From positions 96,001 to 160,000 of the forward strand of contig JBBQZX010000007.1 of the NCBI GenBank assembly GCA_038207335.1: a stretch of DNA of 64,000 nucleotides. The letters are read 5' to 3'. The translations under genes were made by a program, and so were the position numbers. Numbering within the stretch: position 1 is the stretch's first letter; every line of letters starts with the position of its first letter. This stretch comes from Chthoniobacterales bacterium (lineage in GTDB: Bacteria > Verrucomicrobiota > Verrucomicrobiia > Chthoniobacterales > Chthoniobacteraceae). Below, one piece after another: positions 1,957 to 22,121 of the stretch. The notes below the pieces were generated by a model, which made no database searches, had not been told where the DNA came from, and saw nothing but the letters and a program-made list of their open reading frames with translations.

Positions 1957-2609
1957 CTGCTCTCCTTTCGCAGGCGCTCGAGGTCGGTGAGAAGATGGGC
2001 GCTGCCCTCAGCCGTGAGGGCGTCGTAAAAGCCGCGCACGTATCCGTTTTTATCGACGAGCACGAGCTTCGTGCTGTGCGTGACGGGCTCCTTCACGGTG
2101 CCGCCTTCGTCGCTGACTCCGAGCTTGAAGCCCTTGTTCGCAAATTCGTAGATCGCTGATTTGTCGCCGGTCAGGAAGAACCAGCCGTCGCCTGCGTGGA
2201 ATTTCGCGGCGTATTCTTTGAGGACTTCGGGCGTGTCGCGCCCGGGATCAGCGGAGATGGAGACGAGAGCGACATCGGGCATCGACGCGGTAACTTTTTG
2301 CAAATCCCCGAGGCGGCTCGTCATCATCGGGCACGGGCCAGGGCAGCTTGTGTAGAAGAAATCGGCGACCCAGATTTTGCCACGCAGGTCGGATTGCGTG
2401 ATGGTTTTACCGCTGCGCTCGGTGAATGAGAAAGCGGGCAGAAGCCAGTGGCGCGGGAGTTCACCGGCCGGCGCGGGAGCGTCGAGCATCTCGAAGGCGT
2501 CGTCCTTTTTCCCGCACGCCGCGAGGAGGACGGAGAGGAGAAGCATGGGCAGCAGGACGTGTTTAATCTTCGACAATCCAGCGAGTAAAGGTGGAATCCG
2601 TTTGCTCAT
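1953..2609 (-). CDS. sco: SCO1/SenC copper chaperone (lipoprotein)
   Basis: Lipobox LAAC; FFYTSCPGPCP CxxxC motif; DPGRDTPEVL; conserved His in VTHS. Confidence 0.93.
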   Translation of the reverse strand: MSKRIPPLLAGLSKIKHVLLPMLLLSVLLAACGKKDDAFEMLDAPAPAGELPRHWLLPAFSFTERSGKTITQSDLRGKIWVADFFYTSCPGPCPMMTSRLGDLQKVTASMPDVALVSISADPGRDTPEVLKEYAAKFHAGDGWFFLTGDKSAIYEFANKGFKLGVSDEGGTVKEPVTHSTKLVLVDKNGYVRGFYDALTAEGSAHLLTDLERLRKESR

Positions 2610-4818: not shown

Positions 4819-5703
4819 TTAGTTCGGCGAGCCCGTGGATGTCCGCACGGGCGGAGCATCGGGCGTCGGCGGAGCGGAGACTGCCTTCTCGCCGGAGGGC
4901 GCTGGCTGTGCGGCGCCAGGAGCGGGTGCTGGAACGACAGGCGTGGGGGCGTCGGGGTGCTGGAGTTTCGCGAGTTCCTGATACCACGAGTCCCAGTCAC
5001 TCTGCGGCTCGACGGCCATCGTGGCGCGCATGGCGTAATGACCCGCGCCGCAAAGCTGCGCGCAGACGATCTCGAAATTGCCCGTCTTGATCGGGCGGAA
5101 CCAAACCGGCACACGCGATCCCGGAATCGCATCCTGCGTGATGCGCATGTTGTGCAGCGAAAGACTGTGGATCACGTCCTTTGAGGTAATCTCGATGACA
5201 GTCGGCTTGTAATTGATGAGGTGCAGTTCGTTTTTTGAAACCACGTCGTCCTTGCCTGCAGGGTCGTTCGGATCGAGGCCGAGCGGATTGTTCGCATCCA
5301 CGAGGTGCGCGTTCTGCCGTCCGAAGATGCCGTCAGGGCCGGGGTAGTGAAAATTCCACGCGAATTGCTCGCCGACAGCGTGGACACGCAGAGCCTGCGC
5401 TTTATCGGGGAAGGAATCCTCAGTCACGCGCTTGCCCCACAGCGGGAGGCCGAAGCCGAGCAGCAGCACCGCCTCAACGAGAACGACTGTGAACTCGAGA
5501 TGCGTGGAAACCTTGCTTTTAACACCGTGATAATTGGCGCGCGGATTCCGCGACCGATGGAAACGGTAGATCGTGTAGAGGAAAAAGATGAACCAGCCGA
5601 TGAACAGGAGGAGCATGAACCAATGGCAGAACTCGAGCATGTGATCGATCGAGTAGCCGTGTTCGGAAGCGTCGGGGACGATCCCCATCCATTTGTTGAG
5701 CAT
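4819..5703 (-). CDS. ctaC: Cytochrome c oxidase subunit II (CuA), no fused heme-c domain
   Basis: Two TM helices, QFAWNFHY, SKDVIHS, DAIPG, CAQLCGAGHYAM CuA motif; Pro/Ala tail; no CxxCH. Confidence 0.95.
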   Translation of the reverse strand: MLNKWMGIVPDASEHGYSIDHMLEFCHWFMLLLFIGWFIFFLYTIYRFHRSRNPRANYHGVKSKVSTHLEFTVVLVEAVLLLGFGLPLWGKRVTEDSFPDKAQALRVHAVGEQFAWNFHYPGPDGIFGRQNAHLVDANNPLGLDPNDPAGKDDVVSKNELHLINYKPTVIEITSKDVIHSLSLHNMRITQDAIPGSRVPVWFRPIKTGNFEIVCAQLCGAGHYAMRATMAVEPQSDWDSWYQELAKLQHPDAPTPVVPAPAPGAAQPAPSGEKAVSAPPTPDAPPVRTSTGSPN

Positions 5704-5709
5704 GTGAGT

Positions 5710-5997
5710 TTAGTCGTTGTCTGCACCGTCGTCCTTGGACGAGTCGTCTGCGATGTCGAATTGCGGAGGCATGGGTGTATTCGCGCGCCTCGCGAGGGTG
5801 ACGCCGAACGCGCAGAGCAGCGCGAGGACTCCACCGATCATTCCCAGCATGAGAAAGATTGAAGCGTTCAGCGCGCCTGCGGCTTTGGAATTTGGGTCGC
5901 CCATGCACACGGCGCAGGCGGAGGCGGAGAGAGGATTGGCGAGCAGCGCGAATGTCAGCGCGACTCCGAGCGATCGGATCGAGGTGAAAGTGCTCAT
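5710..5997 (-). CDS. Small exported membrane protein with N-terminal CxxC (ASA-CAVCMGD)
   Basis: ATG at 5997 overlaps the upstream stop; signal peptide, CAVC, one TM helix, acidic tail. Confidence 0.75.
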   Translation of the reverse strand: MSTFTSIRSLGVALTFALLANPLSASACAVCMGDPNSKAAGALNASIFLMLGMIGGVLALLCAFGVTLARRANTPMPPQFDIADDSSKDDGADND

Positions 5998-6179
5998 GTG
6001 ATGATGTGGCGCGATTTTTTCAGAAACCAGACACCGTAAGCGACGAGACCGACCGCCACCACGACCGATCCTACGCCGAAATAAAGCTCCACTCCATTCA
6101 CAAATGCCCATGCAGCGCACCCTGACGCCAAGAGGATCGCCAGCAGGATGAACAGGATGTGAAAGGCTTTGAGCGACAT
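5994..6179 (-). CDS. Small two-TM membrane protein in the cox operon
   Basis: 61-aa hydrophobic ORF (MSLKAFHILFI...) abutting ctaF and overlapping the next gene by ATGA. Confidence 0.75.
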   Translation of the reverse strand: MSLKAFHILFILLAILLASGCAAWAFVNGVELYFGVGSVVVAVGLVAYGVWFLKKSRHIIT

Positions 6180-6551
6180 TTAGTGAGTGTTGTGCGACGT
6201 GCCGAAAATCGGATCCGTCCAAGCCAGCAACGTCAGCAAAAAGAGACCGCAGACGAAGAATGCGGTGAAGTAGAGGAAGCGAGTGATGGTCGGCTTCTCG
6301 CCTTTCAAGTGCATGAAAATCGCACCGACCAAGCTGACCTTGAACGCAGCAACGAGCAGCGCAATGACGATGTTCCGCGAGCGGGACCCGAAGTCGATGT
6401 AGGACAAAAAGACCGTGAAACCGGTGAGGGCGATGAGCGCCGCGCCGATGCCCCAATAGAGCTTCAGGTGCATGTCGTGGTGCCCATGCTCGTCGGCGTG
6501 TGCGGGTGCGTGATTGGTGGGAGTTACTGCGGGGCTGTGCGAGTCGCTCAT
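6180..6551 (-). CDS. ctaF: Cytochrome c oxidase subunit IV
   Basis: His-rich N-terminus; three TM helices with LIALTGFTV and AAFKVSLVGAIFMHLKGE. Start set at the ATG at 6551. Confidence 0.9.
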   Translation of the reverse strand: MSDSHSPAVTPTNHAPAHADEHGHHDMHLKLYWGIGAALIALTGFTVFLSYIDFGSRSRNIVIALLVAAFKVSLVGAIFMHLKGEKPTITRFLYFTAFFVCGLFLLTLLAWTDPIFGTSHNTH

Positions 6552-6561
6552 GTCGGTAGGA

Positions 6562-7539
6562 TCAAAGGAGGTAGAAGAGCGGGAAGACGAAAATCCAGAC
6601 GAGATCGACGAAGTGCCAGAAAAGACCGACGACTTCGACACGATTGGCGAGGTGCTCAGGGTTGGTCTTGTAGAGCTTCGCGCCAGGTCCCCAGAAATAA
6701 AGGAATACCAGCACGCCCGCCAAGACGTGCGCACCGTGCAAGCCGGTGATCGTGAAATAGACCGCGAAGTAGGAACTGTGCCGGGGGATGAACATGCTGG
6801 GACTCGAGATTTCCAAGTCTTCCGCGTGGATGACCGCGGTCTTCATCGACAGCTTCTTCGGCCAGAAATGCGGACGTTCGTTGTCTTCACTGGTCGGCTC
6901 GGCGTTCACCTCATCAAGCTGGATCACGTAGTCGGTGGGATCATCCGTGCGGATGATCGGCGCGAGACCTTCTGCCGAGTGTTCACCCTCAGCATGCAGT
7001 TCGTGCTCGAAATGTTCGGCGTTCTTCTCTGCCACCTCTGCGTAGTGGGAACCCTTCGGAGCATCGAGCAGGTGACCAGTGATCTCGTAGCGCGGATCGA
7101 GGTTGTGCTCCTTGAGGAAGGCGTTGCCGAGATAAGGCTCATACTTCTCCAGTGACTCTTTTTTGATGAAGACGCCGAAGTGATTGAACTTCTGCGGATA
7201 CTCATACGCCAGCTTCACCACAAGGAAGAGGATGCCACACAAGATCGTGATGGCCATGTAGAACTTGTATTGCGCGAACTTTCGCATCTTCAGCGCAGCC
7301 CAAGACAACACTACCGTGACCGATGACAGGATGAGCACCGCGGTGTTGAATGTGCCAACTGGAACATTCAGCAAGCCGTGCGGCCAGTATCCCGGTTCAG
7401 CGCCAAGGCGGAGAAAGATGTAGCCCGAGAAAAGCCCGCCGAAGAGCATGACTTCCGATGCCAGAAAGAGCCAGATGCCCAGCTTGGCATTGTAGAGCCC
7501 CGTGTCCGGGCGCGCCGTTACTTCATGTGGAATTTGCAT
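6562..7539 (-). CDS. ctaE: Cytochrome c oxidase subunit III with a large soluble insertion
   Basis: KLGIWLFLASEVMLFGGLF, NTAVLILSS, YFTITGLHGAHV, GLFWHFVDLVWIFVFPLFY motifs. Confidence 0.95.
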   Translation of the reverse strand: MQIPHEVTARPDTGLYNAKLGIWLFLASEVMLFGGLFSGYIFLRLGAEPGYWPHGLLNVPVGTFNTAVLILSSVTVVLSWAALKMRKFAQYKFYMAITILCGILFLVVKLAYEYPQKFNHFGVFIKKESLEKYEPYLGNAFLKEHNLDPRYEITGHLLDAPKGSHYAEVAEKNAEHFEHELHAEGEHSAEGLAPIIRTDDPTDYVIQLDEVNAEPTSEDNERPHFWPKKLSMKTAVIHAEDLEISSPSMFIPRHSSYFAVYFTITGLHGAHVLAGVLVFLYFWGPGAKLYKTNPEHLANRVEVVGLFWHFVDLVWIFVFPLFYLL

Positions 7540-7542
7540 GTC

Positions 7543-9471
7543 TTAGTGTGCCTGAGCTGGAACCGGAACGGCGGAAGCGACGACTTTGACTCCAACCGGC
7601 TCAGTCTGAGGCGTGAAGTCTTTGTCTGCCCCAGGGACGCTGTATTCGTAAGGACCGCGATAGACGGTGATTTCGGTATCGAAGTTCCCATGTCCGGGAG
7701 GCGACGGCGCATCCCATTCGACGGTCGTCGCATCCCACGGATTCCGGCCGACTTTCTTTCCGTTAAACATGCTCCAGAAGAAATTGAAGATGAACGGGAG
7801 TTGGAACGCGGCGAGGCAGAACGCCGAGGTGCTCATGAATTTATTCCAGTGCAAGACGGGGCCCGCGAACTGATAAGTCAAGTGCTCCAAATCCGCGCCA
7901 CCGCCATCGTACCAGCGGCGATGCACACCCGCCATGCCTTGTAGGAACATGGGGAAGAAGAGGCCATTGATGAAAACCAAGGAACCCCAGAAGTGAATGC
8001 GGCCAAGGAAGTCATTCAACTGGCGACCGGTCGCTTTTGGGAACCAATAATAGACGCCGGCGAAAATAGCGAAAATCGTTCCCGGCGCGACGATGTAATG
8101 GAAGTGCCCGATGATGTAGTAGGTGTCGTGCAGGTAGAGATCGACGGCATTGAAGGCCAGCGGGATGCCCGTAAGACCGCCGATGCCGAACATTGGCATG
8201 AAGGCAGTGGCGAACATCATCGGCATGGTGAATCGGATCGACCCGCCCCACAGCGATAGCATGAGTGCGGTGATCAGGATGACCGATGGGATGGAGATGA
8301 GGATGGTCGTGACTTGGAAGAAGCCCGCGACCGTGGCGCCCATCCCAGTCATATACATGTGATGCGCCCAGACGATGAACGAGAGGAAGGCGAGGACGAA
8401 GATCGCGCCGACCATCGCTTTGTATCCGTAGAGCGGCTTGCGCGTGTTATTTGCCACGACCTCCGCGATTATGCCGATGCCGGGCAGGATGAGGACATAG
8501 ACCTCCGGGTGAGCCAAGAACCAGAACAAGTGCTGCCAGAGCAACGGACTGCCGCCGCCGGACCAGTCGGTGAGCCTTTGCCCCACGATCAAGCCCGTCG
8601 GCATGAAGAAGCTCGTGCCGAAGACGCGATCCATGAACTGGAAGATGCCCGCGGCCTCGAGCGGAGGGAACGCGAGAAGCAGGAGGAAGGCGGTGATGAA
8701 TTGCGCCCAGACGAAGAACGGGAGGCGCATCCAAGTCATGCCCGGCGCGCGTAATTGGATGATGGTCGCGATGAAGTTCACGGAGCCCAGTAGGGAGGCC
8801 GTGATGTTGAAAATCATGCCGGTGAGCCAAAGGGTTTGGCCGTTGAAAAAGTGGTGGTGGCCAATGCCCATGTCCGCGATGCCTGCGAGCGGCGGGTAGG
8901 CCGTCCAGCCCGATTTTGCGGCACCGCCGGGGACGAGGAAACTGACGAGCATGAAGATACAACTGATGAAGAAGCACCAGTAGCTCGCCATGTTGATGCG
9001 CGGAAAGGTCATGTCGGGCGCGCCGATTTGCAGCGGGACGACGAAGTTTCCAAAAGCGGCGAAGGCAATCGGCACGATGCCGAAGAAGACCATGATGGTG
9101 CCGTGCATCGCACCCATCGTGTTGTAGCCGTCGGGCGATAGGACTCCGGCAGGAAATTGGTCGCTGATGGCGCGCAGCCAGAACCAGCCGTCGAATTGCC
9201 CCGCGACGACTGGATGGGTCACGAGGAAGTTTTGCGCAGCGATGAAGGCGTGGCCGATGACTGGCACCGCGGTGCCAGGATGCGCGAGCTGCCACCGCAT
9301 GATGAGCATGAGGCAGAAGCCGAAGAACAGGAACGCGAGGCCGGTCAGGCCATACTGGATGCCGATCGTTTTGTGATCGGTGGAGAAGATGTATTTCCGC
9401 CAATAGCTGAGCTCGTGATGATGGTCGTCGTGATGCGCGGCGTGCGGATCGGCGTGTGTGTGAATTTCCAT
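7543..9471 (-). CDS. ctaD: Cytochrome c oxidase subunit I, type A1 (aa3)
   Basis: STDHKTIG, MHGTIMVFF, PDMTFPRIN, HPEVY, WAHHM, LHDTYYIIGHFHY, RR; all six His ligands present. Confidence 0.97.
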   Translation of the reverse strand: MEIHTHADPHAAHHDDHHHELSYWRKYIFSTDHKTIGIQYGLTGLAFLFFGFCLMLIMRWQLAHPGTAVPVIGHAFIAAQNFLVTHPVVAGQFDGWFWLRAISDQFPAGVLSPDGYNTMGAMHGTIMVFFGIVPIAFAAFGNFVVPLQIGAPDMTFPRINMASYWCFFISCIFMLVSFLVPGGAAKSGWTAYPPLAGIADMGIGHHHFFNGQTLWLTGMIFNITASLLGSVNFIATIIQLRAPGMTWMRLPFFVWAQFITAFLLLLAFPPLEAAGIFQFMDRVFGTSFFMPTGLIVGQRLTDWSGGGSPLLWQHLFWFLAHPEVYVLILPGIGIIAEVVANNTRKPLYGYKAMVGAIFVLAFLSFIVWAHHMYMTGMGATVAGFFQVTTILISIPSVILITALMLSLWGGSIRFTMPMMFATAFMPMFGIGGLTGIPLAFNAVDLYLHDTYYIIGHFHYIVAPGTIFAIFAGVYYWFPKATGRQLNDFLGRIHFWGSLVFINGLFFPMFLQGMAGVHRRWYDGGGADLEHLTYQFAGPVLHWNKFMSTSAFCLAAFQLPFIFNFFWSMFNGKKVGRNPWDATTVEWDAPSPPGHGNFDTEITVYRGPYEYSVPGADKDFTPQTEPVGVKVVASAVPVPAQAH

Positions 9472-9499
9472 GCGGCGGTGAGATTTTAAACGGGGCGAG

Positions 9500-9527
9500 A
9501 CTTTAACGAGCGACTCGCGTTTCGCAA
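9500..9527 (-). promoter_or_regulatory. Possible internal sigma70-like promoter for ctaD
   Basis: Minus strand reads TTGCGA-16 nt-TAAAGT in the gap upstream of ctaD. Confidence 0.35.
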
Positions 9528-9566
9528 TTGACGGGGTGTCTGCGGCCGATCATTCGGGCGGCGCGG

Positions 9567-10040
9567 TTACTTGGCGGCGGGTTCTTCCTTCCACGCCTTC
9601 AACTCAGGCTCCGTCCACGGTGTCTTTCGATCGGTGAATTTCTTGCGCGCGGCGGCCACGACATCAGCGGCGACGGCAGGCGCGATGTTGCCGAAATTGG
9701 AGCGGACGTAGGTCATCACGGCGGCGATTTTCTCGTCGGTGAGCATGGCTTCTTGGCCCGGCATGATGTTGTTGTAGGGCTTGCCTTCGACGGTCATCGG
9801 CCCGGCGTTTCCTTTCAAGATCATGGCTGCCATGCGCTCGGCAGGGCCATTGACGTATTCGGATTTTGTGAGCGGCGGGAATACTGGCGGGAGGCCGAGC
9901 CCGGTCGGCTGGTGGCACGCGAAGCAGACGGTCATGTAAACGGTCTTGCCCATCGCAACTTGCGCGGGCGGAGCGTCTTGTGCGGAGGCGGTGCTTAAGG
10001 TCGCGGCGACGGCGTAGGCGAGAGCGAGTAGGTTTTTCAT
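9567..10040 (-). CDS. Periplasmic monoheme cytochrome c
   Basis: Signal peptide MKNLLALAYAVAATLSTASA from the ATG at 10040; CFACH; NNIMPG distal Met. Confidence 0.92.
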   Translation of the reverse strand: MKNLLALAYAVAATLSTASAQDAPPAQVAMGKTVYMTVCFACHQPTGLGLPPVFPPLTKSEYVNGPAERMAAMILKGNAGPMTVEGKPYNNIMPGQEAMLTDEKIAAVMTYVRSNFGNIAPAVAADVVAAARKKFTDRKTPWTEPELKAWKEEPAAK

Positions 10041-10053
10041 GGTGGAAAAGTGG

Positions 10054-11544
10054 TTACTGTGCGGGCGCTGGGGCGGCGGGTTCGGGCGCGGCAGGCGCGG
10101 GTGCTGGAATAGCGGGTGGCGCTGTCGGAGGAGGCTGCGAGGCAGGAGCCGGTGGCGCAATAGGCGGGGGTGGTGGCTCCGATTGAGCTGGTGCTGGAGC
10201 CCGTGGAACTGGCGCAGGTACGGGCATCGGAGCAAGGGCTGCTTCGGGCGTTGCCACGGCTGGCGGGATGGTTGGCGCTGCGGGAGCGGGTGTCGCTGGT
10301 ACGGCGGCCTCGGGCGCGGGCGCGGCACCGCCGAATGCTTTCAATTCCGGTTCCGTCCACGGCGTCTTGCGGTCGGCAAATTTCGCTCGCGCCGCCGCGA
10401 CGACGGCCGGCGAGACGGGCGGCGCGGAGTTGCCGAAATTAGCGCGGACGTAGGTCATCACCGCGGCAATCTTGTCATCGGTGAGCATCGCCTCCTGACC
10501 GGGCATCACGTTGTTGAAAGGCTTGCCTTCGACGGTCATCGGTCCGGCGTTCCCTTTCAGGATCATCGCCGCGAAACGCTCTTCAGGCCCGTTCGCGTAC
10601 TCGGACTTCACGAGCGGCGGGAAGACCATCGGCAGGCCGAGGCCTGTCGGCTGGTGGCACGCGAAGCAGACAGTCATATAGACCTGCTTGCCTTGCGCCA
10701 ATTGCGCTGGGTCGGCAGAAGCGGGCGCGGGCATGGCTGCGGGCATTGGGGCTCCTTGAGCGGGAGTTCCAGCAATCAGGGGCGCGGGAGTCTCCGCTGC
10801 GGCAGCGGCAGGCGCGGGTGTGGCTGGCTTGGCTGCAGGCGCTGCACTCGGCGCGGCGTCGGCTTGTTCGTAGTTCGCATCCGCCGGAATTTGGAGTAGT
10901 TGCGCTTCCGTCCATGAGGCCGTCTGGTTCTCGAATTCCTTCTTCGCCGAGGTGACATCGGCCTCGGTCACTTCGGGCGCGGCATTTCCCCACTCCGAGC
11001 GGATGAAGCTCAAAACTGCAGCGATCTTTTTGTCGCTCAGATTCTTTTCCCACGGCGGCATGACGCCATTGAAAATTTGGCCTTCGACATGCACCGGGCC
11101 TTGTAGGCCTTTGAGCAAAATCGCGATCAGCCGCTTCTCGCCACCGAGCGCAAACTCGGACTTTACGAGCGGCGGAAATTGCCCCGGCACACCGAGCCCG
11201 TTTTGCTGGTGGCACGTCACGCAGTTCGCATAGACCGCCTTGCCCTGCTGCGCGAGCGTCAGCGTCGCGGCAGCTTCGGACTTTCCGCCGGCCTTTGCTG
11301 GCAGCGGAAAGAGCGCGGCAGGCGAACTTTCGTATTCGTTGTAGATATTCGACGAAAAACCCCCGTGGAATACGCCGAGGTAAGCACCCGCCCAAAGGAC
11401 TGCGACGCCGCAGACCGCGGTGAGCCACAGTGGGATCGGCGTGACGTTTGCCTTTGGGTCGCCGTGCTCGCGCTGGATGGCGGCATGCACTTCCGTGACG
11501 TCGTCGGTTTCGCGATAGTCGATGCGTTCAGGACCTTCGTTCAT
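10054..11544 (-). CDS. Membrane-anchored diheme cytochrome c (CcoP position) with Pro/Ala-rich linker and tail
   Basis: N-terminal TM PIPLWLTAVCGVAVLWAGAYLG; CVTCH and CFACH hemes, each with an MP motif. Confidence 0.92.
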   Translation of the reverse strand: MNEGPERIDYRETDDVTEVHAAIQREHGDPKANVTPIPLWLTAVCGVAVLWAGAYLGVFHGGFSSNIYNEYESSPAALFPLPAKAGGKSEAAATLTLAQQGKAVYANCVTCHQQNGLGVPGQFPPLVKSEFALGGEKRLIAILLKGLQGPVHVEGQIFNGVMPPWEKNLSDKKIAAVLSFIRSEWGNAAPEVTEADVTSAKKEFENQTASWTEAQLLQIPADANYEQADAAPSAAPAAKPATPAPAAAAAETPAPLIAGTPAQGAPMPAAMPAPASADPAQLAQGKQVYMTVCFACHQPTGLGLPMVFPPLVKSEYANGPEERFAAMILKGNAGPMTVEGKPFNNVMPGQEAMLTDDKIAAVMTYVRANFGNSAPPVSPAVVAAARAKFADRKTPWTEPELKAFGGAAPAPEAAVPATPAPAAPTIPPAVATPEAALAPMPVPAPVPRAPAPAQSEPPPPPIAPPAPASQPPPTAPPAIPAPAPAAPEPAAPAPAQ

Positions 11545-11560
11545 TCTCGGAAATCTTTGG

Positions 11561-12214
11561 TTACTTCGCCGGCGCCAGCGCGCCTTTGACTTCCTTCAAG
11601 GGATGGGTGGAATCGAGCGAAAGGAGGTAAGCGACGAGCTGGCGGGCCTCGGCTTTTGGCACGATCTCGTACCCATCTTTCGTCGCGACATTCAAGGCAT
11701 CGACCGACCGCTGGCCGCTGATCTTCCGCGTCTCGAAAAGGTATCGGTAGGGCGGCATGTTCGACTCATGCACGATCACGGTGGGCTGATAGAGATGGAG
11801 GTAATGCCATGCGGCATCTCGGCGCGCAGGTTTGCGCGGGTCGTTGATGTCTTCGTTGCGCCACTCTTTCGTCCCAACATCGGTCAGGTCCGGGCCGAGC
11901 CGCATGTTACCGAGAAATGTGGGATTTTTATAAATGTAGTCCCGTGCGACGGTGCGCCGAGCTCCCCACCCGCGCTCGATGTCGAGGCCGTTTTGCGGGT
12001 CGCGAATTTGCTGCGAATGGCAGTAGAAGCAACCTTCGGAGGCATAGACCTCGCGGCCTTTGCGGGGATTGTAAACGGGATATACATCGCCCGCGTCTTC
12101 ATCGACCTGCGGCTGGAGCCCGCCCAACTGCACCTGCGGCACGAGCACGAGCGCAAAGCAGGAGATCGCGAACGATCCGAAGATTCCGGCGAAGAGATAG
12201 GATGAGCGGCTCAT
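11561..12214 (-). CDS. ccoO: cbb3-type oxidase subunit II-like monoheme cytochrome c
   Basis: GREVYASEGCFYCHSQQIR, RLGPDL, WHYLHLYQP, SNMPPY match CcoO motifs. Confidence 0.92.
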   Translation of the reverse strand: MSRSSYLFAGIFGSFAISCFALVLVPQVQLGGLQPQVDEDAGDVYPVYNPRKGREVYASEGCFYCHSQQIRDPQNGLDIERGWGARRTVARDYIYKNPTFLGNMRLGPDLTDVGTKEWRNEDINDPRKPARRDAAWHYLHLYQPTVIVHESNMPPYRYLFETRKISGQRSVDALNVATKDGYEIVPKAEARQLVAYLLSLDSTHPLKEVKGALAPAK

Positions 12215-13708
12215 TTAATGTTTCTCCTCTCCAGGGACCGCGAAGAGTGTCGGCGCGCCGCCCGGTTGTCCGATCCGCAGCAGCATGAGCAGGAAGTGGA
12301 GCGCGAAGATGATGTGCGCGATGGCTACAAAGCCAATCGCGAGTGTGTGACCGGCGAGATAGACTTGGCCGATGCCGATGACTTGGGTGAAGGTCGCCTC
12401 CGGATCGATCATCGCAAGGCCGGCGGCGAGACCGGAGAAGGCAAGCATGGCGATGAGGACTCCGCCGCCGTAAGCCGCTCCCCAGAAGTGGAGCTTGATG
12501 AGTGTGGAGGAAAGCCACTCGCAGCCGACGAGACGCGGCGTGATGTAATAGATCGCGCCGAACATGATCATCGAGAAGAACGCGTAGATGACCAGTTGAT
12601 GCTGCGCGGCTTGGAACTGCGTGAAGTGGACGATGCTATCGACGCTTCGGAGCGAGGTGAGGATTCCCACGACACTGGCGACCGCAAAAGCCACGGTGCC
12701 AAAGTAGGTGAAGCGGATGGTGGGAGAGTAATAGACCATCTGCGTGTGGCCGCGCATCGTGAAGATGAGGTTGGTCGTCACGGTTGCGATGGGCACGAGC
12801 ATCATGAGGCTCGCCGCGATGCTCACGGTCGCGAGCCATGCGGGGATCGGGCCACCGCTGAGACGCACCATCGCGGTGAGTCCGCCGAAAAGTGCAAATG
12901 TCCAGAAGCCGATAGTCGCGAGGTTGTAGCTGTAGATCGGCGTGTTGACGACTTTCGGAATGAGGTAGTAGGCCGCGGCCAGACCGATGGCGGTGAACCA
13001 CAGGACGAGGATACTTTGCGAATACCACGCGGCGACGACGCTCTGCATGACTCCTTGGAGCTGTGGCAAGCCGTTTAGGAGCTGCGCGACGCCGAAGAGC
13101 CACGGGAACCAGAAGAAGGCGCCGAGCAGATACCAGACAGAAATATAGACGGGCGATTTGCGGCGGAAGCGGTAAAGGATCGCGCCCCACAGACCGACGA
13201 GGACGTATCCTAGGAACATGATCGCCGCCGCGGCACGGGGGATCTCCATGCCTTCGATGCCGGAGGTTTTACCAGCGAGGATGCAGAGGATGCCGATGAC
13301 TAGGCCGAGATTCCAAAGCAACGCGCCGAAAACGAGAAAGCCAGGGTAGCGGATGGAGACGCGACAGAGTCGCGACATGAGCCAGATGCCGACGCCCATT
13401 CCAGCGAGGCTGGCCCAGCCGTAGGTCAGGGTGAGATTGTAAGCCGGGGCGATGCGGCCGTACGTGAGCCACGAGCAATCGGCGAGGAAGCCGGGGTGGT
13501 GGAGCTTCACCGAGGTGATGAAGCCGAACACGGTGGAGAGGAGGAGCCAGCCGATCGCGGTGGTGAAGAAGAGCAGCACCGGGCCCGCTGCGGCGGCGTC
13601 GATCGTCGCGCGTTCTATGGATACTTTGGCCTTCGCCGCTTGGGCGGGCACGGCCTCGATCGCGACGGCCGTTGTCGGTTTGATTTCTGGAGCGGCGACG
13701 GCGGTCAT
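12215..13708 (-). CDS. cbb3-type oxidase subunit I-like (CcoN-fold) protein lacking heme/CuB histidines
   Basis: Scaffold motifs WLTYGR, E..E, YISVWY, YYLIPK..PIYSY, HFTQ, LHFW are kept; ligand His positions are substituted. Frame is intact and coupled to its neighbours. Confidence 0.9.
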   Translation of the reverse strand: MTAVAAPEIKPTTAVAIEAVPAQAAKAKVSIERATIDAAAAGPVLLFFTTAIGWLLLSTVFGFITSVKLHHPGFLADCSWLTYGRIAPAYNLTLTYGWASLAGMGVGIWLMSRLCRVSIRYPGFLVFGALLWNLGLVIGILCILAGKTSGIEGMEIPRAAAAIMFLGYVLVGLWGAILYRFRRKSPVYISVWYLLGAFFWFPWLFGVAQLLNGLPQLQGVMQSVVAAWYSQSILVLWFTAIGLAAAYYLIPKVVNTPIYSYNLATIGFWTFALFGGLTAMVRLSGGPIPAWLATVSIAASLMMLVPIATVTTNLIFTMRGHTQMVYYSPTIRFTYFGTVAFAVASVVGILTSLRSVDSIVHFTQFQAAQHQLVIYAFFSMIMFGAIYYITPRLVGCEWLSSTLIKLHFWGAAYGGGVLIAMLAFSGLAAGLAMIDPEATFTQVIGIGQVYLAGHTLAIGFVAIAHIIFALHFLLMLLRIGQPGGAPTLFAVPGEEKH

Positions 13709-14199
13709 TTTTTGGTCTCGATGGGAGCGGGAAGAGCGGCGGGCGCGGCAGCGGCGGCAGGTGACGGGGCAGTCTCAAAGCGAATGGTATCCGCGCCTTG
13801 CGGGGATGACGGGAGCGCGGGTGGCGCGGGCTCTTTGGCGTCGGGGTCGTAGGGCGCAGGCATCGGGAGCGCGGGCTCGACTTTGACTTGGGAAGCCGCG
13901 GGTTTCTTGGAGTTCAGTTCGGCAAGCACGAGCTTGCGGGCATCGGCGAGCGGGATGTGCGCGACTCCTTTCGCCTTGTCCACCCAGCCAACGGTGCCGA
14001 GGCGTTCGTCGTCGGCTTTTTGAAGCGCTTCGCGCTTCTCGATGCGAGCGGCGGCACGATTGTCTTCGACCTGGCCGAGAGGGGCGCCGTTTCTCGCCCA
14101 GATACAGACTACGAGGGCGAAGATAATGAAGAAGAAGATCGCCCAAACGAAGGTCAGGAAACCGCTGGGCTTGGCATGAGGTGTTTCTTCGATCGTCAT
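13705..14199 (-). CDS. actG: Alternative complex III subunit G-like
   Basis: One TM helix; GWVDKAKGVAHIPLADA motif; lies directly after actF. Confidence 0.72.
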   Translation of the reverse strand: MTIEETPHAKPSGFLTFVWAIFFFIIFALVVCIWARNGAPLGQVEDNRAAARIEKREALQKADDERLGTVGWVDKAKGVAHIPLADARKLVLAELNSKKPAASQVKVEPALPMPAPYDPDAKEPAPPALPSSPQGADTIRFETAPSPAAAAAPAALPAPIETKK

Positions 14200-14200
14200 G

Positions 14201-15403
14201 TCAGTTGGTCAGTTTGATAGACGCTGCGAGCCGCGGGTCGCGGGTGGGGAAGAGATAGGTCGCCCCGAGGTTTTTGAAAAACAGCCACACGAGGATCGCG
14301 CCGATTCCAACGAGCGGGAGCAGGTCGAAAACGCTGGGTGATGCGCCTGTCGAGTGCAGCGCGGGGAGGACGACGACGTAGATGTCGATCATGTGGATGA
14401 AGAGAATCCAGCCGGCGACCATGCAGAGGTAGCGCGGCTTTTTCTTTGTCCACTGAAGTAGCAAAACTGGGAAAGGCAGGAAGAATCGTCCGACTACGAG
14501 CAGGGTGCTAAAATACCACCAGCTGTTGGTGTTGCGAATCTGGAAGTAGATCGTCTCTTCCGGGATATTCGCATACCAGATGAGCATGTACTGGCTGAAG
14601 CCGATGTAGGCCCAAAAAATGGTGAAGGTGAGCATGAACTTGCCCATGATGTGGTAGTGCTCGAGCGTGACCACGTTCAGATGCCCGCGAATCTTTAGCC
14701 AAGTGATGATGAGCACGAGCAGGGACATGGAGCTGCCCGCTGCACCGGCGAAGAGATAGACACCCCACATGGTCGAGAACCAGTGGTAGTTCAGGCTCAT
14801 CAACCAATCGACTCCAGAGAATGTGATGCCGAGAGCTACAGCGAAAATGCCCGCGACTCCCAACTTCCGCATCGCAAAACTATGCCTCGCCGCTCCATCT
14901 TTGTCTTGGAGAGTAGAGTGGCGCTTGAGTCCGAATGCGATGCCTCCGAGAGCAAGGAAATAAACGGCGGCGCGGATAAGGAAGAACGGCTTCGAGAGGT
15001 ACGGCTGCTTGGCGTCCAGTAACGGATCGATGCCCGGGCTAAGGTTCCACCATTTAAACAGGATGCCAGCGCAGAGCAGGATCGGGATGAAGAACAGGAC
15101 GAAGTACGGGATAAGGCTCGCGACGTTTTCCAACTGTCGCCGGACGACGACCGACCACTCCGCATCGGTGGCGTGATGGAGGCAAATCCAGAAAAGCGTC
15201 CCAACGCAAATCGTGAAGAAGTAGGTGAAGGCGAAGAGCCATGAGAACGCGAACTGCGGACGCCAGCCGGGGACGATGAGACCAATGAAGCTCAACAGGA
15301 TCGCGACCGCGCCGACGCCGAGCAAGATAGTCGGCAGGCCACCGAGTTTCTTGATATCGAACTTCTCGGCTACGGGAACAGGAGTGTCGTGTGAGTCGCT
15401 CAT
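14201..15403 (-). CDS. actF: Alternative complex III subunit F
   Basis: Polytopic; DWLMSL..WFSTMWG, FWAYIGFSQYMLIWYANIPEE, PTRDPRL motifs. Confidence 0.93.
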   Translation of the reverse strand: MSDSHDTPVPVAEKFDIKKLGGLPTILLGVGAVAILLSFIGLIVPGWRPQFAFSWLFAFTYFFTICVGTLFWICLHHATDAEWSVVVRRQLENVASLIPYFVLFFIPILLCAGILFKWWNLSPGIDPLLDAKQPYLSKPFFLIRAAVYFLALGGIAFGLKRHSTLQDKDGAARHSFAMRKLGVAGIFAVALGITFSGVDWLMSLNYHWFSTMWGVYLFAGAAGSSMSLLVLIITWLKIRGHLNVVTLEHYHIMGKFMLTFTIFWAYIGFSQYMLIWYANIPEETIYFQIRNTNSWWYFSTLLVVGRFFLPFPVLLLQWTKKKPRYLCMVAGWILFIHMIDIYVVVLPALHSTGASPSVFDLLPLVGIGAILVWLFFKNLGATYLFPTRDPRLAASIKLTN

Positions 15404-16089
15404 TGCTTCTTTTCCTGCTGCAATTCTTTCTGCTGCGCCTCGGATAGATCGGCGAGCTTCGCATTTTGGCTGCGCTGGAGCGTGCGCAGGTAGCTCACGA
15501 TGGCCCAGCGATCTTCCACCGCGATCTGCGGACCGTAGGCACCCATCGTGTTCTTGCCGTTGGTGATCGTGCTAAAAATCTGACCGTCGGGCATCGTGCG
15601 GATTCGCTCGTCTTGCAGGTTTGCCACCGTGGCCCAGTTGCCGATTTGCTGGACGATTCCGTTGCCCATGGCGGTGTGGCCGTGGCAGACGGCGCAGTTG
15701 ATGTCGAAGCGCTGCTGGCCTCGCTGTATCAGCTTGTCGGTGACTTCGAGCGGGAAACCGTCGCCATAGACGTCGCCGAACTTGCCGGTGTTGTAATAGT
15801 CGGGCTGGTTGCTGAATCCCTCCTGCGCGAGCGTTCCGTTCTTTGCTCCGGCTTGAAGGTATCGGCCCGGCAGGCTGTAGCCGATCGGCACCGTTCCGGC
15901 GACGGGTTTGCGCTCGGCACTGCCGTCAGCGAAGAAGCCGCTCGTGTGCTGTGGCTGATACTTTGGCTGACGATCCATGTCCGGGAAAATCTCGAGCGGA
16001 GGCAGCTCGCTCTTTGCGCCGCGGAAGCCGGCGAGGGCGATCACCGCGCAGGTTATTAAGAGAAATGAGGCGAAGAAATAACGAAGCAT
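15400..16089 (-). CDS. actE: Alternative complex III subunit E (monoheme cytochrome c)
   Basis: PDMDRQPK, PVAGTVP, RGQQRFDINCAVCHG, DRWAIVSY motifs. Confidence 0.93.
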   Translation of the reverse strand: MLRYFFASFLLITCAVIALAGFRGAKSELPPLEIFPDMDRQPKYQPQHTSGFFADGSAERKPVAGTVPIGYSLPGRYLQAGAKNGTLAQEGFSNQPDYYNTGKFGDVYGDGFPLEVTDKLIQRGQQRFDINCAVCHGHTAMGNGIVQQIGNWATVANLQDERIRTMPDGQIFSTITNGKNTMGAYGPQIAVEDRWAIVSYLRTLQRSQNAKLADLSEAQQKELQQEKKQ

Positions 16090-16102
16090 GTGGCCTTAGT
16101 TT

Positions 16103-16648
16103 CTAGTCGTGGATGAGGGTCACGTGCTTGCCGCCGATGCCTTCGAGAAGCTCGCGAGTCTTGGACTCCGAGAACTTCGGATCACGGGCTTCGATGACGA
16201 CGAAGAAGCCATCGTCGGTCGCGCGCTTGAAGCGCTCCCAGTTAAAGACCGGATGATACCACTTCGGCAGTTGGTTCATGATGAGCAGCGCGAAGACTGT
16301 GGCGAATGCCGAGCAAAGGATCGTGAGCTCGAAGAAGATCGGGAAAAAGGCGGGGACCGTGCGCCAATCGAACGGCTTGCCATGCACGATGAGCGGGTAA
16401 ATTCCCCACGAAGGAATGAAGGTGAGGCAAACTGCGGTGAGCAGACCGGTGATTCCGCCGCAAAGGACCGCAGCGGAAAGCCATGACTTGCCGAGACCCA
16501 TCGCGCTGTCCATGCCATGCACGGGAAATGGGGAGTGGACATCCCAGCGTTTGAAGCCGGCGTCGCGCACTTTTTCAGCGGCGATCATGAGGTCGGCGGC
16601 TGTGTCGAACTCCGCGCCCAATCCATATACTTTACGGTATTCAGCCAT
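16103..16648 (-). CDS. actD: Alternative complex III subunit D (DUF3341)
   Basis: DVHSPFPVHGMD, GKP..PAFFPIFFELTIL, ATDDGF motifs. Confidence 0.95.
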   Translation of the reverse strand: MAEYRKVYGLGAEFDTAADLMIAAEKVRDAGFKRWDVHSPFPVHGMDSAMGLGKSWLSAAVLCGGITGLLTAVCLTFIPSWGIYPLIVHGKPFDWRTVPAFFPIFFELTILCSAFATVFALLIMNQLPKWYHPVFNWERFKRATDDGFFVVIEARDPKFSESKTRELLEGIGGKHVTLIHD

Positions 16649-16658
16649 GTCGTTTGAC

Positions 16659-18107
16659 TTAGGAATGGTGAGCGTTTGTGCCGACGCCGGAACCGGGCTT
16701 GCGTTGATGCGGGTCAGCTTCTGGAGTGACGATTTTAACCTCGGACATCGCGATCATCGGGAGGAAGCGCATGAAGAGTAGGAAGAGAGTCAAAAAGATG
16801 CCGAAGGTGCCGACGAAGGTCCAAATTTCGACCCATGAAGGCGAGTAGTGCCGCCACGAGGACGGCAGGAAATCCTGAGCCAGCGAGGTTACGATGATGA
16901 CGAATCGCTCGAACCACATGCCAGTATTGACGAACATGCAGACGATGAAGACGACGATGTAGTTCGACCGTGCCCATTTCAGCCAGAAAATCTGCGGCGA
17001 AAGGACGTTGCATGTCATCATGCAATAGTAGGCCCATGAGTACCAGCCGGAGTTGTTGATGCCGATGCGTGCATGGAAGAAGGTAAACATCTCGAACTTG
17101 TTCGCGCTATACCACGCGATGAAGAGTTCCATCAGATACGCGTATCCGACGATGCTGCCTGTCAGCAGGATGATCTTCGCCATTTTATCGACATGCTGAC
17201 GGGTCAGGAGATCGTCGAGCTGCGGATAAAGAAGCCTGGCCGGAAGCAGGATGGTGAGCACCATTGCGAAGCCGCCGAAGATTGCGCCCGCGACGAAGTA
17301 AGGCGGGAAGATGGTGGTGTGCCAGCCGGGTAGGATGGATGTGGCAAAGTCGAAGGAGACGACGGAATGCACGGAGAGCACGAGCGGAGTGCTGATGCCG
17401 GCCAGGATGAGATAGGCCATCTCGTAGTGGCGCCATTGGCGGTTCGAGCCGCGCCAGCCCAAGGCGAAGATGCCGTAGAGGTAGCGGGAGACGCGGTTTT
17501 TCGCGCGGTCGCGCAAGGTCGCGAGATCGGGGACGAGGCCGGTATACCAGAAGAGGACGGAGACGGTGAAGTAGGTCGAGACTGCAAAGACGTCCCAGAG
17601 CAGCGGAGAGCGGAAGTTTGGCCAGATGGCGTTGCCGTTCGGAACGGGTGCCAGAAACCACGCCATCCAAACACGACCGACGTGGATGCCGGGGAAGATG
17701 CCGGCGCAGACGACGGCGAAGAGCGTCATGGCCTCGGAGGCGCGGTTGATGGAGGTGCGCCACTTTTGCCGGGTCAGGAAAAGCACGGCGGAAATGAGCG
17801 TGCCGGCGTGGCCGATGCCGATCCAGAAGACGAAGTTCGTGATGTCCCACGCCCAGCCGACGGTCTTGTTTTCCCCCCACATACCGACGCCGTTGGAGAT
17901 TTGCAGGCCGATACAGAAGAGGCCGAAGAGCGCAACCGGGGTCGTGATCAGCATCGCGAGCCACCACCAGAGCGGGGTGCGCGATTCGACGATGCTCGAG
18001 ACATTGTCTGAAATCCACGAGAGCGAGCGGTCGTTCTGCACCAACGGAACTTTGACGAGTTCCGGCTGAGTCGTGAGGGAAACTGTGGGGGCGTCGGCTT
18101 CAGTCAT
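16659..18107 (-). CDS. actC: Alternative complex III subunit C (NrfD family quinol-oxidising subunit)
   Basis: [65 protein letters not shown] motifs. Confidence 0.97.
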
Positions 18108-21100
18108 TACGCTTCACCTCCGGGATGTTCGGCTTTGCCTTCATGGCTCTCGTGATGGTGTTCTCGCGAATAGGCTCCGACCTTCTCCGCACCCGGCATT
18201 TTCATGTTGGGGTTGCGGATACGGGCCAGATACCAGACGCGGGTGCCGACGTTGAGATACTCGAGGAGCCGGTAGCCGCGCTCAGTGGCGCGCACTTTCG
18301 AGACGCTGCTGTCGGGGTTCGCGATATCGCCAAAGGTGATCGCATCTGTCGGACAGGCTTGCGCGCAGGCTACTGTGAAGGCATCGGCGGGGATGCGGAT
18401 GTTATCGGAATCGCGCGCGGCGACCTTTGCAGCGATTTTAGCTTCCTGGATTCGTTGCACGCAAAAGGTGCATTTTTCCATGACTCCGCGCATCCGGACG
18501 GTGACGTTCGGGTTCTTCTGAAGCTTGATGGAATCCTCGGTGCCTTTCGGCGCGGTGAGGTTCCATTTATAAAGGCCGCGGTCTTCGATGTTGCGCTGGT
18601 TGTAGTCGAAGAAGTTGAAGCGGCGGACTTTGAATGGACAGTTGTTCGCGCAGTATCGGGTGCCGATGCAGCGGTTGTAGGCCATCACGTTTAGTCCGTC
18701 GTCGCTGTGAACGGTGGCGTTGACGGGGCATACGGTTTCGCACGGCGCATTCTCGCAGTGCTGGCAGAGCATGGGCTGATAGACCATCTCAGGATCGGCG
18801 GTCTCGTCGCCGACTCCCGCAAAGTAACGATCGGTGCGAATCCAGTGCATCTCGCGGCCGTTGTGGACCTGCTCTTTGCCGACGATCGGAATGTTGTTCT
18901 CCGACTGGCAGGCGACCATGCAGGCGGAGCATCCGGTGCAGGACGAAAGGTCCACGGTCATTCCCCACTGGTGCTGGTTCGTGAGCGGCGGGTGGGAATA
19001 GAGAGAGCTGGTAACAACCTCGGTTTTCTTGCCGTTGACGACTTTCCACTCGGCCTCGGCATCCATGCCGAGCGTCTTTGCGAATTCAGGGTTCTCCTTG
19101 TATTGCTCGATCGTCCCTTCACGGACGAGGTCAGGGCCACGGCCTTCGAGCGTGCCGTGCTCCTGCGTGACTGCGAGAAGGTAGGTGTCGCCGGTTTTCG
19201 CAACTTTCGCGCCGACGATGAAATAAGGCTGTGCGGTGCTGCGGAGGCGGTAGGCATTGAAGCCGGGGCTCTTGCCTGTTGCGTCTTTTCCGCCGACGCG
19301 ACCGGAGACTTCGCGGCCGTATCCGAGTGCGATCGAGAGTGAATTGTCGGCGTGCCCGGGCGCGATAAAAACGGGGATTTTCAGCGAACGCTCCTGCACG
19401 GTGATGTCGATCACGTCGCCGGTTTCGACGCCGAGCTTTGCGGCACTGGCGGGGCTGATGAGAGCGGCGTTGTCCCATGTGACCTTGGTGATCGGATCGG
19501 GGATTTCCTGGAGCCAGCCGTTGTTGGCGAAGCGTCCGTCATCGACTGTGTAGTCGGCAGTGAGGACGATCTCGAAGCTGTTTTCGTCGAGAGCGGGAGC
19601 GGAAAAATTGTCCTTCGCGGATGTCGTGGAGTCGGCGGAAATCGCGAGCGGCTCGGGCTTTGCAGCGCTGTGGGCGAGGAAGCCGTCGTGGAGGAATTTT
19701 GCCCACGCGACGGTGAAATCGGCGGGGCTGGCGGCTTGGCGGAAAGTTTCTTGGATGAGCTCGGGGCCGGTGGTTTTTGCGTGGCCGGCGAATTTTGCGA
19801 GGATGTCCAGCTCCGACCAGCCGTCGTAGAGCGGCAGGATCATCGGCTGGATGGAAAGGTGGCTGCCGTCGGTGGCGTAGGCGTCGCCCCACGACTCGAG
19901 ATAGGTCGCGATCGGCACCTGCCAGGTGGCGAGTTCGGAGGTTTCGTCTTCGTGCAGGCCGACGCGGACAATCGTGCCTTTTTTCTCGTCGCGGAGGGTC
20001 TTGAGGACTTTCGCGAATTCGAGGTCGGACGGCGCGTTGTAGATCGGATTGCCGCCGATGATGATGATCGCGCGGGTCGTGCCGTCGCCGATCGATTTGG
20101 TGAGTTCGCCGATGCTGGCGGCGGGCTTCGCGCCGCGGCGACCGGTGAGCGTTTTGTCGAGGTTGCCGAGCGCGGAGTTGATCGACGCGACGATCGCGTG
20201 GACTCCGGCGGGCTGGCGCGAACCGACGACGACGAGGCTTTTGCCTTTGTTTGCGAGAAGATCGGCGGCGGATTCTTTCACCCACTCCGCGGAGATTTTC
20301 GCGGTCGCGGGCGGGAGCGTTTTTACCAGCGCGAGGAGCGCGGAGTCGCTGGATTTCGCGCCGATTTCCTGCGCGAGGGCGAGGGCGAAGGCACCGATTT
20401 GGCTCGCGGGCATCCGCAGACGGTGGTCGGCCATGCCGCCGGTGACGGTGTAGCGATTTTCGACCGCGTAGAGGCGGTTCATCTTGCCGCCAGCGTCGGG
20501 CTTGCGGCGCGCGGTGAATTGCCGCGTGATGTCGATGGTCGATTCCGTGCCGAGGAAATCGCAGTCGAGCGCCATGATGACGTCGGCTTTTCCCATCTGC
20601 GGAATCGCGGAGATGCCTGCTCCGAAGCTGCCCTCCGGGCCGCCGAGCGGCTCATAAACGGCCCACATCGCCTTTGGAAATTTCTCCTCGATCTCGCCGC
20701 GCAGTCGCTCGCGAGTCGGCCCGTGAATTTCTTCCAAAAGGAACGCGATGCCCGCGCCGTCGGCGGCGTTTTTGATCAGCTCGTCGAGTTCTTTTTCAAA
20801 GGTCGCGACGTCGGACTTTTTGCCGTTTTTGAGGAAATGCTGTGAGCGATCCGGGTCGTAGAAATCGAGGATTGAGGCCTGGGCGAAGATGTCTGTCGCG
20901 CCTTTGCTGGCGGGGTGCAGCGGGTTGCCCTCAATTTTCGTGGGGCGTCCGTCGTGAGTCGTGACGACGAGCGGGATCGCGCCGTTGCGGGTCGGGTAGG
21001 CGCTGGAGAAAAATAGGGCCTTGCCGGGAATCGACCACTCGACGCCGCGCGTGAACGGGACGAGTTGCATTTCCGGCCGGCGGCAGCCGGCGAAGCTGAG

Positions 21101-21304
21101 GCCGGCGAGCGCCATCGACGCGCCCATGAGCTGGAGGAAATTGCGACGGGAAACTTCGCCGCCGCCGAACTCTGACGCACCTTGCGGGAACTCGCGCTCG
21201 AGCCAGCCGCGGAATTCCGGGGTGCCGGAGAGCTGGCCGAGGCTGCGCCAGTATTTCTTGCCAGTGGCGGCCTCGGGCGGGTGATTGAAAACGCGTTTGC
21301 TCAT
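18107..21304 (-). CDS. actB: Alternative complex III subunit B (molybdopterin-oxidoreductase-like plus Fe-S domain, Tat lipoprotein)
   Basis: YWRSL, REFP, SRRNFL Tat motif with FAGC lipobox, [10 protein letters not shown]; Fe-S motifs [40 protein letters not shown]. Confidence 0.97.
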
Positions 21305-21316
21305 CGAAAAATTTCG

Positions 21317-21991
21317 TTAGCGGTGGCAGCCGGCGCAGTTGCCATCGGGCGGATGGACGTTCCATTCCGCCTTTAGTTTCAGGCCGAGCTTTTCCTGCGC
21401 GTCGGTCACGGACTGGCCTTTCTCAGTCGGCGCGGTCCAGTCGAGATTCGTGATTTGGTCGAGCGGGCGCAGCGCGTGCTCGGGGTTCCGGTGGCAGTTG
21501 AGGCAGAAATCCATCGACAGCGGCTTGGCTTGATAGACGACGGCCATTTCGTTGATCTTCCCGTGGCACTCGACGCAAGAGACGCCGCGGTTCACGTGAG
21601 CCGAGTGGTTGAAATAGACGTAGTCGGGGGTCTTGTGGACTTGCACCCACTCGATGGGTTTGCCGGTCTGCCACGAGTCGCGCACGGGCTGGAGCTTCGG
21701 GTTGTCTTTCTGAATCTGCCCGTGGCAGTTCATGCAAACCTGCGTGGTCGGAACGTTCGAGTGCGCGGCGACCTCGACGAAGCTGTGGCAGTAGCGGCAA
21801 TCCATGCCGACTTGCTTCACATGGATGTCGTGCGGAAACGGGACGGGCTGAACGGGTTGGTATCCGACGTTCGTGTATTTGTTGGTAAAGTAATACCCGA
21901 AGCCTGCCGTGAGCGCGACGCCGAGCACGGCGGCACATAGCGCGATTTTGAGAGGCAGGAAGTTGCTCGACCGTGGAAAGATGTTCGCCAT
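21317..21991 (-). CDS. actA: Alternative complex III subunit A (pentaheme cytochrome c)
   Basis: N-terminal TM; five CxxCH motifs (CRYCH, CMNCH, CVECH, CLNCH, CAGCH); QPVPFPH. Confidence 0.96.
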   Translation of the reverse strand: MANIFPRSSNFLPLKIALCAAVLGVALTAGFGYYFTNKYTNVGYQPVQPVPFPHDIHVKQVGMDCRYCHSFVEVAAHSNVPTTQVCMNCHGQIQKDNPKLQPVRDSWQTGKPIEWVQVHKTPDYVYFNHSAHVNRGVSCVECHGKINEMAVVYQAKPLSMDFCLNCHRNPEHALRPLDQITNLDWTAPTEKGQSVTDAQEKLGLKLKAEWNVHPPDGNCAGCHR

Positions 21992-22103: not shown

Positions 22104-22121
22104 TTGTGAAAAATTTCACAA
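22104..22121. promoter_or_regulatory. Rex-type operator palindrome
   Basis: TTGTGAA-AAAT-TTCACAA exactly matches the Rex consensus TTGTGAAnnnnTTCACAA, about 110 bp upstream of actA. Confidence 0.75.

Follow-up and report, generated by a model that had tools for sequence, protein, structure and literature searches.

Here we examine a respiratory gene cluster on the minus strand of a 64,000-nucleotide stretch of contig JBBQZX010000007.1 (positions 96,001 to 160,000) from a Chthoniobacterales bacterium, hereafter the window, in which genes for alternative complex III (ACIII) are followed by those of a cbb3-type oxidase core and then by those of an A-family aa3 oxidase. The homologue of the cbb3 subunit I, CcoN, encoded there has lost all of its catalytic residues, and is referred to below as pseudo-CcoN. 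We propose, with a probability that we would put at roughly 0.6, that it acts as a cofactor-less membrane scaffold by which CcoO and an anchored cytochrome of c552 type would be held on ACIII, with the c552 feeding a separately regulated aa3 oxidase.

The pseudo-ccoN gene (12215–13708, minus strand, as are all genes of the cluster given below) encodes 497 amino acids. Adopting what we take to be the roles and numbering of the six histidine ligands and the cross-link tyrosine in P. stutzeri CcoN (3mk7_A), we find Y90 and Q371 in place of the low-spin heme b pair, Q369 at the heme b3 position, Q231, V281 and R282 at the CuB positions, and G275 in helix VII where the cross-link tyrosine should be. 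None of the six histidines, and thus none of the seven catalytic residues, is kept, in agreement with an earlier note, made from the bare sequence, which had called this gene dead. The fold is that of a 12-helix heme-copper oxidase with CcoN as its nearest relative; the structure model has a predicted local distance difference test score of 87.8 and compares with 3MK7 at a template modelling (TM) score of 0.84 and a root mean square deviation of 2.3 Å, and identity to the genome's own canonical CcoN is 25%. Every histidine ligand being lost, the protein does not fit the nitric oxide reductases of the superfamily either, which, in the accessible part of PMC11214002, retain heme and non-heme metal histidines and lack the tyrosine. 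Pseudo-CcoN is nonetheless under purifying selection: the ratio of non-synonymous to synonymous substitution rates (dN/dS) is 0.086, 0.068, 0.110 and 0.074 in comparisons with the four nearest relatives, similar to the values for actB and ccoO, and 0.16–0.20 against three remoter ones, and the reading frames stay open across the class.

The window protein belongs to an ACIII-linked CcoN subfamily of Verrucomicrobiia, whose members form a branch separate from other CcoN sequences in a CcoN tree. With a profile of 23 orthologues, 89 of 301 genomes from the phylum gave a match at an expectation value (E) ≤ 1e-60, partly through canonical CcoN. For comparison 160 loci were taken, namely the best 80 of at least 597 matches, a set weighted towards close kin, and 80 regions chosen from wider searches. 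Eight of these proved to be CcoN genes lying apart from ACIII and were set aside, which left 152 ACIII-type loci from Verrucomicrobiia, in 37 of which all seven residues are kept (intact loci) and in 115 of which they are not (dead loci). Where the contig sufficed, 99 of 100 dead loci and all 36 intact ones have actF upstream of ccoN, and ccoO with a c552 cytochrome follows it in all 100 dead loci and in 36 of 37 intact ones. The ACIII–CcoN–CcoO–c552 linkage, for which the earlier note had suggested a survey across Verrucomicrobiota, thus held in nearly all loci, and the occurrence of intact orthologues at the same operon position bears out its view that CcoN is a converted former oxidase.

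Conversion appears to have happened repeatedly. In a tree of ActC and ActF (59 rows, quick method, three fragments dropped) we count 12 switches between the intact and the dead state, and starred branches join dead with intact sisters; since regain of all seven residues is unlikely, these changes are probably mostly losses, and the residues now found at the seven positions differ between dead lineages. Alternatively, a dead allele may have been transferred horizontally in place of some separate losses, and some dead sequences do group together in the CcoN tree. An intermediate state is represented by 45 dead copies, mostly Udaeobacter-type, that keep both low-spin heme histidines. The Udaeobacter-type loci (L052–L114) also have a tyrosine at the heme b3 ligand position, long Pro/Ala insertions in CcoO and, in some cases, a degenerate ccoS.

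The gene ccoS (fixS) has a role in cofactor insertion. In the broad sample, a small ccoS/FixS-like gene precedes ccoN in all 36 intact loci and in none of the 34 dead ones. Of 67 close dead loci, 13 have a degenerate version; none lies upstream of the window's pseudo-ccoN, and no clear copy was found elsewhere in its genome. Loss of ccoS and loss of the ligands coincide in all ten independent contrasts (p about 0.002). Positions that we presume to belong to the proton path and the Ca site are invariant in 33 of 33 intact copies and variable among 48 dead ones. The intact form looks active, and the dead form is stripped. A CuA subunit was unmatched in five of 80 genomes; four of these carry an intact CcoN and have good completeness, while the fifth, at 83% completeness, contains a ctaC-like open reading frame (ORF) at its locus. 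Two further features of the intact loci were seen: a glycine where canonical CcoN has a proton-channel histidine (33/33; e.g. L116, L121), and a glutamate in the c552 anchor that is invariant in intact loci only (33/33 versus 31/48 in dead ones).

The two cytochromes downstream differ in how well they have been kept. CcoO (11561–12214; PF02433, aligned to 3mk7_B) is monoheme and has the CxxCH motif and axial methionine, so that it is intact, as had been noted earlier. Across 112 dead loci its CxxCH is kept in 111 and its axial methionine in 96, the remainder being ten substitutions (C, H, K or R), five truncated sequences and one broken one, versus 37 of 37 in intact loci. The next gene (10054–11544) encodes a diheme protein of 496 amino acids with an N-terminal membrane anchor and two heme domains carried on Pro/Ala linkers, and is followed by a monoheme c552 (9567–10040) with a signal-peptide-like start and 84% identity to the diheme protein's domain 2. 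For the heme domains of the diheme protein the best matches are the tethered domain of a copper nitrite reductase (E 5e-22) and T. thermophilus c552 (E 3e-21), both far ahead of CcoP, making these domains c552-type rather than CcoP-type. Cytochrome c552 is a donor to CuA. Most loci have a single c552 domain, to which the window's family adds a second domain and the soluble copy; the c552 CxxCH is invariant throughout the broad sample, 98% of whose dead loci also retain the axial methionine. Because the axial methionine of CcoO has been replaced in some dead lineages and that of c552 has not, c552 rather than CcoO looks like the main electron carrier. The anchored heme-c wire of the earlier note hence survives in part: CcoO and an anchored cytochrome are kept beside ACIII, and the latter belongs to the c552 class of donors to copper centres, whereas CcoO does not appear to be the main carrier.

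The aa3 block seems to be expressed on its own terms. In M. fumariolicum SolV, the genes Mfumv2_0377–0386 (act, ccoN, ccoO and cytochrome) share a single level of expression, 36–85 transcripts per million (TPM), and the A-type oxidase block Mfumv2_0387–0392 reaches 264–552 TPM, with medians 8.8-fold and 6.4-fold above those of the act–c552 genes in two conditions (PMC10205796, supplementary file 4). Gaps between genes from actA to ctaC in the window are at most 16 nt, or the genes overlap, except for 95 nt between the monoheme cytochrome and ctaD; within this gap lies a promoter-like element (TTGCGA, 16 nt, TAAAGT; 9500–9527, minus strand). The pattern TTGCG-N16/17-TAnnnT occurs before ctaD in five of seven aligned sequences, and the window's element scores below the threshold of the scan tool. 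A promoter scan gave no excess (two found, 4.4 expected), and a terminator scan gave nothing convincing within the operon.

How electrons might travel through such an assembly can be outlined from known ACIII systems, in which they run from menaquinol oxidation at ActC through ActB and ActA to ActE (accessible part of PMC5928083) and in which ACIII–oxidase pairs need one additional heme-c domain, on ActA or CtaC (PMC8552683, PMC5928083, likewise in part). In the window, menaquinol would be oxidised at ActC and electrons passed along ActB, ActA and ActE. Because the extra heme-c domain of the known pairs is absent from both ActA and CtaC here, we infer that the anchored c552, held by the CcoN–CcoO core as CcoP is in cbb3, is the extra carrier. 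With an intact CcoN the c552 would pass electrons to CcoO and heme b; with a dead one it would pass them from the ActA/ActE wire to the CuA of aa3, by tethered swinging or by way of the soluble copy. The ancestor of the class may have had an ACIII–CcoN–CcoO–c552 quinol:O2 unit with c552 in the CcoP position. Oxygen reduction by CcoN would then have been lost many times where an A-family oxidase was available, the scaffold presumably being retained because the electron exit of ACIII depends on it, and in the window's family the outlet would have been lengthened by the second tethered c552 domain and the soluble copy.

A number of points weigh against pseudo-CcoN being such a scaffold. The trees are quick trees only, and the 45 dead copies with both low-spin heme ligands mean that 'cofactor-less' is not valid for every lineage. 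The N-terminal anchor of c552 is only weakly CcoP-like: a weak FixP_N match appears in 18 of 82 family members at E ≤ 0.1, and the anchor profile matches the genome's own CcoP weakly, with a score equalled by four shuffles. The expression data come from SolV, a distant relative of the window organism, and concern mRNA rather than protein. In families f18, f19 and f27, the A-type subunit II encoded elsewhere in the genome has its own heme c in ten of the ten dead genomes checked, where the need for an outlet is not obvious. Finally, the conservation could reflect an assembly role without electron transfer. The heme-c-bearing subunits II of these three families also led us to reject the module as a general replacement for a missing caa3 heme c, which is the purpose that the conversion had been given in the earlier note.

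A broader account, which we regard as possible and rather less likely than the scaffold alone, extends the same genes to the whole class. On this account Verrucomicrobiia would possess an ACIII with a built-in cbb3 core, which would be a quinol:O2 machine if intact, would have been converted about a dozen times into a c552-tethering adaptor for A-family oxidases, and would form a true ACIII–pseudo-cbb3–aa3 supercomplex in the window's family. If this is true, it would be the first case in which subunit I of a heme-copper oxidase has been turned to a purely structural role.

A fixed ACIII–pseudo-cbb3–aa3 supercomplex, in which a wire made up of CcoO and the diheme protein stands in for the caa3 heme-c domain, had been the proposal of the earlier note; we consider it doubtful, and it could hold for the window's family alone. 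The genes are contiguous, and ACIII–oxidase supercomplexes are known from Rhodothermus marinus and Flavobacterium johnsoniae (accessible part of PMC5928083), but aa3 genes adjoin 39 of 82 dead versus six of 36 intact loci, so that 43 of the 82 dead loci have no adjacent aa3, and adjacency tracks ligand loss in none of the ten independent contrasts. On these two counts we reject a dependence of ligand loss on aa3 adjacency. All 39 operon-linked CtaC are devoid of CxxCH, and thus of the heme c on subunit II that distinguishes caa3, as would suit a replacement; yet in three closer relatives the same heme-less aa3 block sits away from the ACIII operon. Extra c552 hemes do go with aa3, in that all 13 loci with at least two c552 hemes and enough DNA have it adjacent (12 of the 13 being close kin) and none of 73 loci without aa3 has them; the soluble c552 copy, however, suggests diffusion, and the promoter-like element before ctaD and the 6-9-fold expression step in SolV point to separate control. 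Neither constant gene linkage of ACIII and aa3 nor matched expression was found in the contrasts, adjacency counts and SolV transcripts.

Pseudo-CcoN and CcoO might instead be mere assembly or stability factors for ACIII or c552, with no part in positioning a carrier during turnover. The ten dead loci with a substituted CcoO axial methionine would agree with this, as would the residues conserved in dead copies, which are mostly glycine, proline and aromatic, but the near-universal CxxCH of CcoO and a subfamily-specific charged stretch in it (W83, R86, R91, D92), 90–100% kept in dead and intact loci alike, make it improbable. Lower still do we rate a newly gained activity of pseudo-CcoN, such as a heme b relay, a quinone site, an ion path or a sensor: the retained low-spin histidines and degenerate ccoS genes described above could be read in that way, but no new ligand set is shared, the seven positions vary by lineage, polar proton-path positions decay, and the window copy is without both heme b ligands. 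Least credible of all is that CcoO and the diheme protein serve a canonical CcoN encoded elsewhere, which the earlier note had named as the case that would undo its proposal, or that the dead gene is a relic in decay. The genome does hold an intact canonical cbb3 operon, but the CcoN there comes as a fusion with a CcoO of its own and is accompanied by its own CcoP, no canonical ccoN was seen in four of four family f22 genomes with the dead gene, and dN/dS is about 0.09 with frames open class-wide. This reading is already largely refuted.

The remaining genes of the cluster follow the order given in the earlier note, actA–G, ccoN, ccoO, diheme cytochrome, soluble cytochrome c and aa3 genes, all in one direction. 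The ACIII set actABCDEF is complete: actA (21317–21991) encodes a pentaheme cytochrome c with five CxxCH and no extra monoheme domain (Pfam; five hemes in 44 of 45 relatives), actB (18107–21304) a molybdopterin-fold and Fe-S subunit (Pfam/NCBIfam), actC (16659–18107) an NrfD-type quinol-binding subunit (PF03916), actD (16103–16648) a PF11821 protein (E 3e-57), and actE (15400–16089) a monoheme cytochrome c (Pfam) with an N-terminal hydrophobic helix. No lipobox cysteine is present in this ActE, nor in any of 136 ActE from operons of this type, whereas the genome's other ACIII has an ActE with a lipobox. ActF (14201–15403) has no Pfam match and was assigned by position, hydrophobic make-up and a place conserved in relatives, and the single-helix membrane protein after it (13705–14199) has no family match and is called ActG-like from its position, a comparable ORF following actF in most relatives and in the genome's second ACIII operon. 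In loci L154, L169 and L200 a cytochrome c domain occupies the ActG position before ccoN, fused to an ActG-like protein in L154, and in family f49 (L174, L176–L179) a heptaheme cytochrome precedes intact ccoN genes.

The oxidase block is that of an A-family aa3 enzyme, with intact subunit I motifs, a CuA subunit II and genes for heme A synthesis. It comprises ctaD (7543–9471; subunit I with an HPEVY motif, PF00115, TIGR02891), ctaE (6562–7539; subunit III, PF00510), ctaF (6180–6551; subunit IV, PF03626, TIGR02229), two family-conserved membrane ORFs of no known family, with 61 amino acids (5994–6179) and with 95 amino acids and a CxxC motif (5710–5997), and ctaC (4819–5703; subunit II, TIGR02866), which has a CuA motif and, as stated in the earlier note, no CxxCH. 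Every operon-linked CtaC with a full CuA motif has Gln in place of the usual Glu (CxQxCG). The same-strand series extends past position 4819 through ctaA (heme A synthase, 3523–4764, PF02628), ctaB (heme O synthase, 2606–3526, TIGR01473), a sco/senC copper chaperone (1953–2609, PF02630) and a DUF420 membrane protein (1519–1956, PF04238).

Upstream of actA lies a perfect palindrome (22104–22121, no strand assigned) of what we take to be the Rex consensus, and such a site with no mismatches occurs there in 18 of 54 loci with upstream DNA. The genome holds four perfect copies (the window site, C3:159039, C13:121867 and C15:15537), three of which precede this operon, nuoD and an atpB-like gene, the other lying close to a small lipoprotein-like ORF; a Rex gene is on C35. 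Because a site of this type is common to the nuoD and atpB regions, the window operon is suggested to be the main respiratory ACIII, and none was found at the second ACIII operon. The latter (C1:276140-287972) is a conventional ACIII–caa3 operon with heme c on CtaC, a lipobox on ActE and an A2-type YSHP motif. The canonical cbb3 cluster (C45:2969-10638) comprises the CcoN–CcoO fusion, a monoheme CcoP, CcoG and CcoI. A search of the genome, which is 94.7% complete, revealed no bc1 cytochrome b. Elsewhere in the window, a 1041-amino-acid secreted-looking protein with beta-propeller-like and Calx-beta-like parts is encoded at 28674–31799 (plus strand). No relatives were confirmed among the viral contigs checked.

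Taken as a series from intact through partly stripped to fully stripped, these loci show an oxidase that has lost catalysis yet is retained as essential, with a maturation gene lost in step, and they bear on the open question of how ACIII hands over its electrons. The same gene cluster is the 'ACIII-adjacent cbb3 oxidase' of verrucomicrobial methanotrophs and Opitutaceae, which the accessible parts of PMC8498564 and PMC6688271 treat as a working high-affinity cbb3 oxidase. The proteins annotated as cbb3 subunit I in M. kamchatkense Kam1 (WP_039721928.1), M. infernorum (WP_242522757.1) and the M. fumariolicum SolV cluster (member P0124) keep one of the seven residues, and the 'high-affinity cbb3 oxidase' of Methylacidiphilum, soil Chthoniobacterales and Udaeobacter metagenome-assembled genomes would, by its sequence, be unable to reduce oxygen. 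As cultured SolV expresses the unit, direct testing is possible. Our literature search, which did not extend to subscription papers and supplements (including that of PMC11214002, which may classify these sequences), found no description of CcoN ligand loss. The co-location of ACIII and ccoN is itself already in print.

The module can be set beside four known systems. With P. stutzeri cbb3 CcoNOP (3MK7) it shares the fold, the N–O–cytochrome gene order and the CcoO heme motif, but it lacks the heme and copper ligands, the cross-link tyrosine and ccoS, has a c552-type third subunit and is tied to ACIII. The bc1–cbb3 supercomplexes (6XKW and 8SMR, as far as the accessible descriptions of these entries go) likewise join a complex III to a cbb3 core through anchored cytochromes, with bc1 and an active oxidase where the window has ACIII and a dead one. 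Rhodothermus marinus ACIII–caa3 resembles the window in its pentaheme ActA, its ActE as the proposed exit and its downstream oxidase genes (PMC5928083, in part); there, however, oxidase subunit II carries the linking heme c as a fused domain and ActE is a proposed lipoprotein, whereas in the window CtaC is without heme c, ActE is without a lipobox, and the CcoN–CcoO–c552 module is inserted. In Flavobacterium johnsoniae ACIII–aa3, again as given in the accessible part of PMC8552683, a heme-c-less aa3 is fed by a mobile monoheme domain, much as we envisage here; that domain is part of ActA, and its counterpart in the window is a distinct anchored protein next to a dead oxidase core.

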